Assembly (NCBI RefSeq): GCF_041886205.1
Contig: NZ_CP169031.1
Source of the DNA: Escherichia coli
Lineage (GTDB): Bacteria; Pseudomonadota; Gammaproteobacteria; Enterobacterales; Enterobacteriaceae
Direction: 5' to 3' (one strand)
DNA length: 64,000 bases
Position numbers and translations under genes: made by a program. Each line of letters starts with the position of its first letter. Positions within the stretch are counted from its first letter, which is position 1. Of this stretch, positions 33,584-34,916 are shown one piece after another. The notes under the pieces were generated by a model. It saw only the letters and a list, made by a program, of their open reading frames with translations, did no database searches and had not been told where the DNA came from.

Positions 33584-33599
33584 CTGTTAATTTATACAG
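33584..33599. promoter_or_regulatory. LexA box (SOS operator)
   Basis: CTGTTAATTTATACAG, i.e. CTGT-N8-ACAG, 22 nt upstream of the humD start. Confidence 0.7.
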
Positions 33600-34916
33600 T
33601 ATACATTAAAGAGACACCTTTGGTGCAAACGCGTTACGTACATCAACCACCGCTGATGATTTTGTGCTCTTTGCTACTATTCATCACCGCGGGATCAGCG
33701 TAACCTCGTTGCCAATCAGTTAATAAGGAATTAGCTATGCCTAATCGCATTCCTCTCATCTCTTAACGATATCAACGATGCGTTATATGAATACTGTGAA
33801 AAAACGAGCATCACAGATGCACCTGATGCATTTGTCGAGCTACCGGTATATCTCCGCGACATCTATGCAATACGAACACCGCCCGTATCGGTGATTCACA
33901 TTGGCTATGTCCGCCTGTCCATCGAAGAAGATGAAGATCGTTATATCGTGCGCCACTATACATTGGACAGAAAAGAACTTCCTAATGAATGGAACATGAG
34001 TAATTTCTACAACGGTGAATATGGCTTAAAATCCGCTAATAATTTACGGTCATAATCTATACAGGCATGTATAACAACAACGAGCCTATTAGCTGTCAAC
34101 AACGTTATTTTCTCAAATAAGAAAAGGCACAAAACAAATTGTTTAAGGCCACAAATTGTGGCCTTAATGGAGGAGGGAGGCTTATTGGCTATGGCTAAAA
34201 ATCAAATTAGACACTTCATGTTGCTGTAGCTCATCTAGATCCGAGGCCACAAAACCTTTTCCGAAAAAATTCACAAGTAACTCACTAGCCGCATCATTAT
34301 CACCTATTACACGAAAGCCATACGGCAACGTCGCAAGTTGACGATGTAATCCTGCTGAGAAAGTCGAATCTAACAGCGCCCAGAATTCCCACAGCAGGAT
34401 AATACTCGCCTCTTAATACTGTATATATGTTGTTACGATATGTTTTTCTGTCTCTAAAAAAAGATGTTAATAGAATGCTAACCATTGAAGTGGATAAAAA
34501 TATACAATTCCAACAAACGTTATCTTTAACAATTTTTTTCTTTGCGTTGACTTTCCCGGACACCTTGTCTGACCGAAGGTGCGCGAAAGCCACTTTTTCC
34601 TTCCTGAGTTATCCACAAAGTTATGCACTTGCAAGAGGGCCATTTTCTACATATTGTGGTGGCTAACAGATGAAATGAATGTAGATTAATTGAAGATAAG
34701 GAGAAAATTTGAGATGCAATCATGACGTTAATAGATATGGTCTGCATTACAGACCCCACCCGCATCAAGGAATTAGCCGTTCCCTGATGTTTTTCCGAAA
34801 ACATGTGCCGTAAGCTCACGTTAACGACTTTCATTCACCGAATCCAACTATATAGGGGTTGGGTTTCTACGTCAACGTGAGAGCACACAGCTTTACATTT
34901 GACGAGGATTACCCTG

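Follow-up and report, generated by a model that had tools for sequence, protein, structure and literature searches.

The LexA box of humD and a deletion-derived upf93.6 fragment in a P1-like phage-plasmid of Escherichia coli

The window, by which is meant the whole stretch of 64,000 nucleotides of Escherichia coli DNA that was analysed, is a P1-like phage-plasmid, in which the ORF map gives the gene run pacA-lpa-pdcB-doc-phd-humD with all genes on the minus strand. Between positions 33100 and 34500 it is matched at 97-99% identity by SJ46, P7, P1 and further phage-plasmids (megablast). The features at the locus are the following:

32499-32879, minus strand: doc (ORF map).
33173-33562, minus strand: humD, intact, 129 aa, a UmuD'-like gene of the S24 peptidase family (ORF list, P1 HumD, Pfam).
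33582-33601, no strand: LexA box TACTGTTAATTTATACAGTA (pattern search; annotated LexA sites of P1 and P7).
33602-33736, plus strand: upstream and leader region of the former lxr, with a Shine-Dalgarno sequence (SD), AAGGA, at about 33726-33730 (comparison with P1, P7 and SJ46).
33737-33766, plus strand: lxr remnant, codons 1-7 (MPNRIPL) at 33737-33757 and then out-of-frame upf93.6 (tblastn, translation).
33757-33758, no strand: deletion junction, 623 bp absent relative to SJ46 (NC_031129.1 77142-77764; BLAST and hand alignment).
33758-34055, plus strand: upf93.6 remnant, nt 60-357 of a 357-nt gene, that is the 3' 298 nt (tblastn, translation).
34143-34167, minus strand: GC-rich hairpin TTAAGGCCACAATTTGTGGCCTTAA, terminator-like for convergent minus-strand small ORFs that are homologues of P7 upf91.x (collinear with P7 and SJ46).

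The product of humD is 99.2% identical to P1 HumD over 129/129 aa and has a match to the Pfam family Peptidase_S24 (E = 5.7e-9). HumD is said to be the counterpart of pre-cleaved UmuD', and reportedly it has no umuC partner.

The LexA box that the initial annotation had placed between humD and a plus-strand reading frame is real. It lies upstream of two start codons, 20 nt from the humD ATG and 135 nt from the plus-strand ATG at 33737, and with a palindromic CTGT-N8-ACAG core (CTGTTAATTTATACAG, 33584-33599), TA flanks and A/T at 8/8 spacer bases it has the sequence features of an Enterobacterial-type LexA operator. The core pattern CTGT-N8-ACAG occurs at four sites in the window against 0.73 expected from shuffles; the longer TACTGT-N8-ACAGTA, with 12 specified bases, has a single site in the 64 kb, which is the humD box with 0 mismatches, the expectation for the search with one mismatch being 0.12. 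The LexA consensus is reportedly TACTGTATATATATACAGTA, which the humD box matches at 17/20. At the homologous position P1 (NC_005856) carries a protein_bind feature for LexA, described as lying in the region that regulates lxr and humD (87545-87564), the P7 record has a LexA site annotated for the regulation of humD expression, and humD has been stated to be LexA-regulated (PMC9603915).

The corresponding 20-mer of P1 is TACTGTTCATTTATACAGTA, to which the window is identical at 19/20 positions, the one difference lying in the spacer, where 33589 is A instead of C. This base is C in P1, P7, SJ46 and all eight plasmids that share the junction described below, and T in D6 and RCS47; the A of the window is a private substitution which leaves the CTGT and ACAG arms intact. 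When the humD upstream regions of P1, P7, SJ46, D6, RCS47 and four plasmids were aligned, the arms were invariant, the spacer was variable (C, A, or T..C) and the box adjoined humD in every relative. In D6 and RCS47 the similarity to P1 stops about 15 nt past the box, and hot is found in place of lxr. As box and humD are kept together even there, the box travels with humD as a unit, which suggests that the promoter/operator of humD is local. The box belongs to humD, is already annotated in P1 and P7 and is not new, and it is predicted to be an operator that was common to humD and the former lxr operon.

A second LexA-like box, AACTGTATGGATTTACAGGT at 26290-26309, lies between cre and coi/c1 and about 30 bp from loxP (ATAACTTCGTATAATGTATGCTA from 26338), the genes on its two sides being:

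24888-25919, minus strand: cre.
27073-27924: c1.

P1 has a LexA site that overlaps the coi promoter (PMC4713147, a paper on P1 Ref). With GC-rich spacers, the remaining two CTGT-N8-ACAG matches (at 646 and at 57886) look like chance occurrences.

From the humD ATG to 33691 the window shows 4-7 differences from P1, P7 and SJ46 in 136 compared positions. A strict consensus promoter scan around the box found no strong sigma-70 site. Two weak sigma-70 candidates overlap the box, each with 8/12 matches, TTCACC-N18-TATACA on the plus strand (33569-33598) and TTGCAC-N19-TATACT on the minus strand (33628-33598). The P1 record predicts a humD promoter, TTGATG-N15-CATCCT, within lxr at P1 87080-87106, about 380 bp upstream of the box, and the segment carrying it is absent from the window as part of the deletion between 33757 and 33758. 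This annotated promoter is a weak match and is probably not the real humD promoter; were it the real one, humD expression would also be affected by the deletion. A search of 33000-35700 against Rfam returned no RNA family.

The plus-strand frame, 33735-34055, had been described as having no start near its 5' end and as occupying the position of lxr/hot in P1, and both points were confirmed. A TAG at 33732-33734 precedes it, and its 106 open codons run to ...GEYGLKSANNLRS and a stop. The first canonical start in this frame is a GTG at 33891, from which a product of 54 aa would remain, and an ATG does not occur in frame until 33993. An SD (AAGGA) is present at one ATG only, that at 33737, which is in a different frame and opens the lxr remnant ORF of nine codons, MPNRIPLIS, followed by a stop. 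The first eight codons of the long frame (LCLIAFLS) are the 5' end of lxr read out of frame. Residues 21-118 of Upf93.6 then follow at 33759-34052, with the stop at 34053-34055, and they are 100% identical to residues 21-118 of SJ46 gp084, a protein of 118 aa (E = 7e-64), and 99% identical to the same residues of P7 Upf93.6; intact Upf93.6 matches phrog_5797 at 3.8e-77. The frame is thus no decayed lxr or hot; it is the 3' part of upf93.6, a gene absent from P1.

No complete Upf93.6 ORF is present, with the first 59 nt gone and neither a start codon nor a ribosome-binding site (RBS), and PGAP called no gene at this locus in the junction-bearing plasmids. Because of the missing start codon and RBS the frame is judged to be a pseudogene fragment of upf93.6, and a recent one, for which translation would not be expected; apart from the deletion the remnant shows no decay. 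That it is non-functional is not provable by sequence alone. A member of the Lxr/Upf94.2 family (PHROG 6164) would be recognised by a length of about 190 aa, an N-terminal domain with W31 W32 D33, C49-L-N-G-G53 and Q105-R-P-D108, and a C-terminal coiled coil; only residues 1-7 of Lxr/gp083 are encoded in the window, with no other Lxr match in the 64 kb (tblastn). The initial annotation was correct in that the product is not a theta subunit: with P1 Hot as the query for HolE/Hot homology, the best tblastn match across the whole window had an E of 1.0, and a hot homologue was rejected. An intact lxr or hot after correction of the frame had been set beforehand as the finding that would count against the annotation, and none was found by tblastn in the 64 kb.

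The former lxr-upf93.6 unit ends at the hairpin at 34143-34167. Overlapping small ORFs on the minus strand at 34182-34834 converge on this hairpin; they are collinear with P7 upf91.7/91.6/91.4, for which the annotation gives putative transmembrane proteins. In P7 the equivalent of about 34317 is the site of an IS903 insertion.

In SJ46 and P7 the genes gp083/upf94.2 (194 aa) and gp084/upf93.6 (118 aa) follow one another directly on the plus strand (TGA ATG). Upf94.2, which aligns with P1 Lxr at 93% identity, is its P7 allele. Both records align to the window in two pieces, which take up 2,024 bp in the record and 1,401 bp in the window. At the junction the window's ...ATGCCTAATCGCATTCCTCTC continues in SJ46 as GATCCTG..., and the window's ATCTCTTAACG... 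resumes 623 bp on, the lost segment running from codon 8 of lxr to its end and through the first 59 nt of upf93.6. Neither microhomology nor repeats were found at the deletion endpoints and the junction is blunt. The homology, the endpoints and the reading frames on either side are directly observed, and the same holds for the conservation of the box and the recurrence of the junction. It had been proposed that the frame was a decayed or non-canonically initiated gene; the first half of this proposal stands, the second does not, the start having been removed with the 59 nt.

The same junction, 100% contiguous with a 141-nt probe, is found in PLSDB (7 plasmids) and among the complete E. coli genomes of RefSeq (8 genomes), the carriers being EC12/15/18 and XH987/989 (China), THO-010 (Japan), E1624 (Indonesia) and LR882977 (no country). 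That the direction of the change was deletion and not insertion follows from the intact lxr-upf93.6 pair in 123/223 PLSDB plasmids with a match and from the conserved N-termini of both proteins, that of Lxr being conserved at full length in 125 homologues and that of Upf93.6, MAKIxYHRDxGNYLEIYDH, conserved in its homologues. The junction-bearing plasmids are identical to the window over 33692-34069 and about 2.7% divergent from it over 5.1 kb (30000-35111), and this local identity within a divergent backbone points to one event that was spread by recombination. The most economical history would be a single illegitimate deletion followed by homologous recombination among mosaic P1-like plasmids. 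A separate decay allele of lxr occurs in NZ_CP091040.1, where an internal deletion leaves a 51-aa mid-lxr ORF (extract 2540-2695) and upf93.6 is intact; further plasmids give partial matches, and the lxr-upf93.6 pair has been lost repeatedly. Eight hypervariable regions are recognised in P1-like phage-plasmids, the stretch from pmgT to humD being one of them (PMC9603915), and what is recorded here is a disseminated deletion allele within this known region.

As for the two genes that were lost, lxr scored as non-essential when P1 was screened genome-wide by CRISPRi (PMC10695390). PHROGs lists both Lxr and Upf93.6 under unknown function, and comparison of the two with Pfam, NCBIfam and PADLOC gave no assignment, the only matches being sub-threshold ones to DUFs. 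A PDB sequence profile search with Lxr found nothing significant; its AF2 model is confident (pLDDT 86) and no PDB fold match to it was found, and the NCBI label 'DNA-binding protein' has no Pfam or NCBIfam model behind it. The N-terminal part of Lxr, about 125 aa, is 50-60% identical to plasmid proteins of about 133 aa from Pseudomonas, Xanthomonas, Burkholderia, Bradyrhizobium and Klebsiella, and on P. aeruginosa plasmids this homologue has a 67-aa ORF on one side and a serine resolvase on the other. A Upf93.6 homologue of 114 aa is the last gene of a different unit, in which it follows unrelated ORFs of 81 aa and 320 aa, near ccdAB on the Salmonella plasmid contig ABHOUC010000010.1 (extract 1754-3345). 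The Salmonella homologues of Upf93.6 have 54-58% identity and are accompanied by neither Lxr nor a LexA box, thus pairing with Lxr is not obligatory for Upf93.6. The genomic context of the distant homologues of either protein allowed no function to be inferred.

The deleted 20 residues of Upf93.6 include the nearly invariant I4, R8 and G11-E15, and in the AF2 model two beta-strands, residues 3-7 and 11-16, lie within this N-terminus. With these strands and residues missing, the fragment, even if translated, probably would not fold.

Taken together, the locus is most readily explained as the divergent SOS unit humD / lxr-upf93.6 of a P7/SJ46-type phage-plasmid, whose lxr side was lost through one illegitimate deletion of 623 bp. 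Host LexA most likely binds at 33582-33601 and represses humD, as it originally would also have repressed the divergent lxr-upf93.6 transcript, and this repression would last until DNA damage leads to RecA-mediated cleavage of LexA. The deletion joins codon 7 of lxr to nt 60 of upf93.6 out of frame; ribosomes loading at the retained SD and ATG of lxr would stop after nine codons, and the remaining 98 codons of upf93.6, with no start or RBS, would not be expected to be translated, humD and its LexA box being left intact. It is very likely that LexA represses humD through the retained box, that the lxr-upf93.6 operon is dead and that translation from the lxr ATG ends at the ninth codon. LexA binding and SOS induction are predicted here from sequence and database annotation; where the promoters lie, and that the remnant is not translated, are likewise predictions.

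It could be supposed that the deletion allele is itself under selection, the loss of Lxr and Upf93.6 being useful in, for example, uropathogenic E. coli, or that the leader, the nine-codon ORF or the upf93.6 tail acts as an SOS-induced peptide or RNA, or as a recoded Upf93.6 with a swapped N-terminus. These readings are considered very unlikely.

A related view, that the upf93.6 frame is still expressed in an N-terminally altered form as a functional SOS-induced gene, through a +1 frameshift (MPNRIPLIS-NDIND...), reinitiation or a non-canonical start, is exceedingly unlikely. The strong SD and ATG of lxr are kept 21 nt before the junction, and a +1 shift at the stop (ATC TCT TAA C) would reach the Upf93.6 frame almost in register. 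However, there is no slippery P-site codon, as a tRNA-Ser on UCU cannot re-pair on CUU, and no SD-like stimulator lies 3 nt upstream in CCT CTC ATC TCT TAA C, so that the site does not have the makings of a prfB-like +1 site. Nor is there an in-frame ATG, GTG or TTG before 33891, or an SD at 33891 itself, and PGAP calls no gene for the frame. Between the remnant and the intact allele there is 100% identity and the deletion allele persists in at least 9 replicons, yet such identity is also expected from a recent deletion, and the 20 lost residues take with them nearly invariant positions and two predicted beta-strands.

The initial annotation had also set the frame at an island boundary, and it is conceivable that the deletion is linked to the insertion of the type I hsd island and that the remnant is a boundary scar. 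The island is made up as follows:

35112-41667: type I restriction-modification island (collinearity with hsd-free relatives up to 35111).
35587-37149: hsdM, 520 aa.
37146-38354: hsdS, 402 aa.
38476-41592: hsdR, 1038 aa.

The hsd genes begin 1.5 kb downstream (hsdM at 35587) and the whole region is a known hotspot of cargo exchange (PMC9603915), but the window is collinear with hsd-free relatives up to the island, which starts 1,056 bp downstream of the start-less frame, and similarity to P1 resumes at 41668. Hsd genes are absent from 5/5 junction-bearing plasmids inspected, the closest hsd-bearing plasmids (e.g. CP057418) retain the 623 bp (span 12,526 versus 12,001), and no PLSDB plasmid was found to combine the island with the deletion. 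A link of this kind has an exceedingly slim chance of being right; going by these comparisons, island and deletion are independent events and the frame is no boundary. The island replaces the pmgV-pmgU-pmgT segment of P1, and the P1 annotation remarks that the flanks of this segment are similar to what adjoins the EcoDXXI and R124/3 hsd loci.

An assembly or sequencing artefact (frameshift, collapse) in a replicon that really has an intact lxr-upf93.6, as raised by the earlier suggestion to check for a frameshift, can practically be dismissed, since the difference is a clean absence of 623 bp and not an indel of 1-2 nt, the endpoints have no repeats that could collapse, and the identical junction in eight independently sequenced complete E. 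coli plasmids makes it a real deletion allele.

What remains at the locus is a LexA operator known from annotation and an ordinary deletion-derived pseudogene fragment. The frame should be annotated as a upf93.6 pseudogene fragment with an adjoining lxr remnant, and not as a candidate novel SOS gene; the biological weight of this is small and its main value lies in the annotation. Lxr, with its well-predicted fold and strong conservation on plasmids across the Proteobacteria, is the more interesting question nearby.

Compared with known systems, the window is like the humD-lxr region of P1 in its HumD (99% at the amino acid level), the position of the box, the leader and the first 7 codons of lxr. 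It differs in that P1 has a full lxr of 190 aa followed by a convergent hot, where the window has 7 lxr codons and no hot, and in that P1 is without upf93.6, of which the window carries a fragment. Like the E. coli umuDC operator, its CTGT-N8-ACAG box lies directly upstream of a UmuD-type gene, whereas the operator of the window also faced a divergent gene pair, lxr-upf93.6. The P1-like plasmids pEC18-3, pXH987-OQX, pTHO-010-4, LR882977 plasmid 5 and E1624 p3 have exactly the same junction, yet differ from the window in lacking an hsdMSR island and in having C at 33589 in place of A; as to replicon type these five are IncY, except for pTHO-010-4, which is IncHI1B, and two records that are untyped. 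The parental arrangement is that of P7 upf94.2-upf93.6 and Salmonella phage SJ46 gp083-gp084, which are about 98-99% identical to the window in DNA on both sides of the junction and from which it differs by the missing 623 bp (SJ46 77142-77764), with both genes inactivated.
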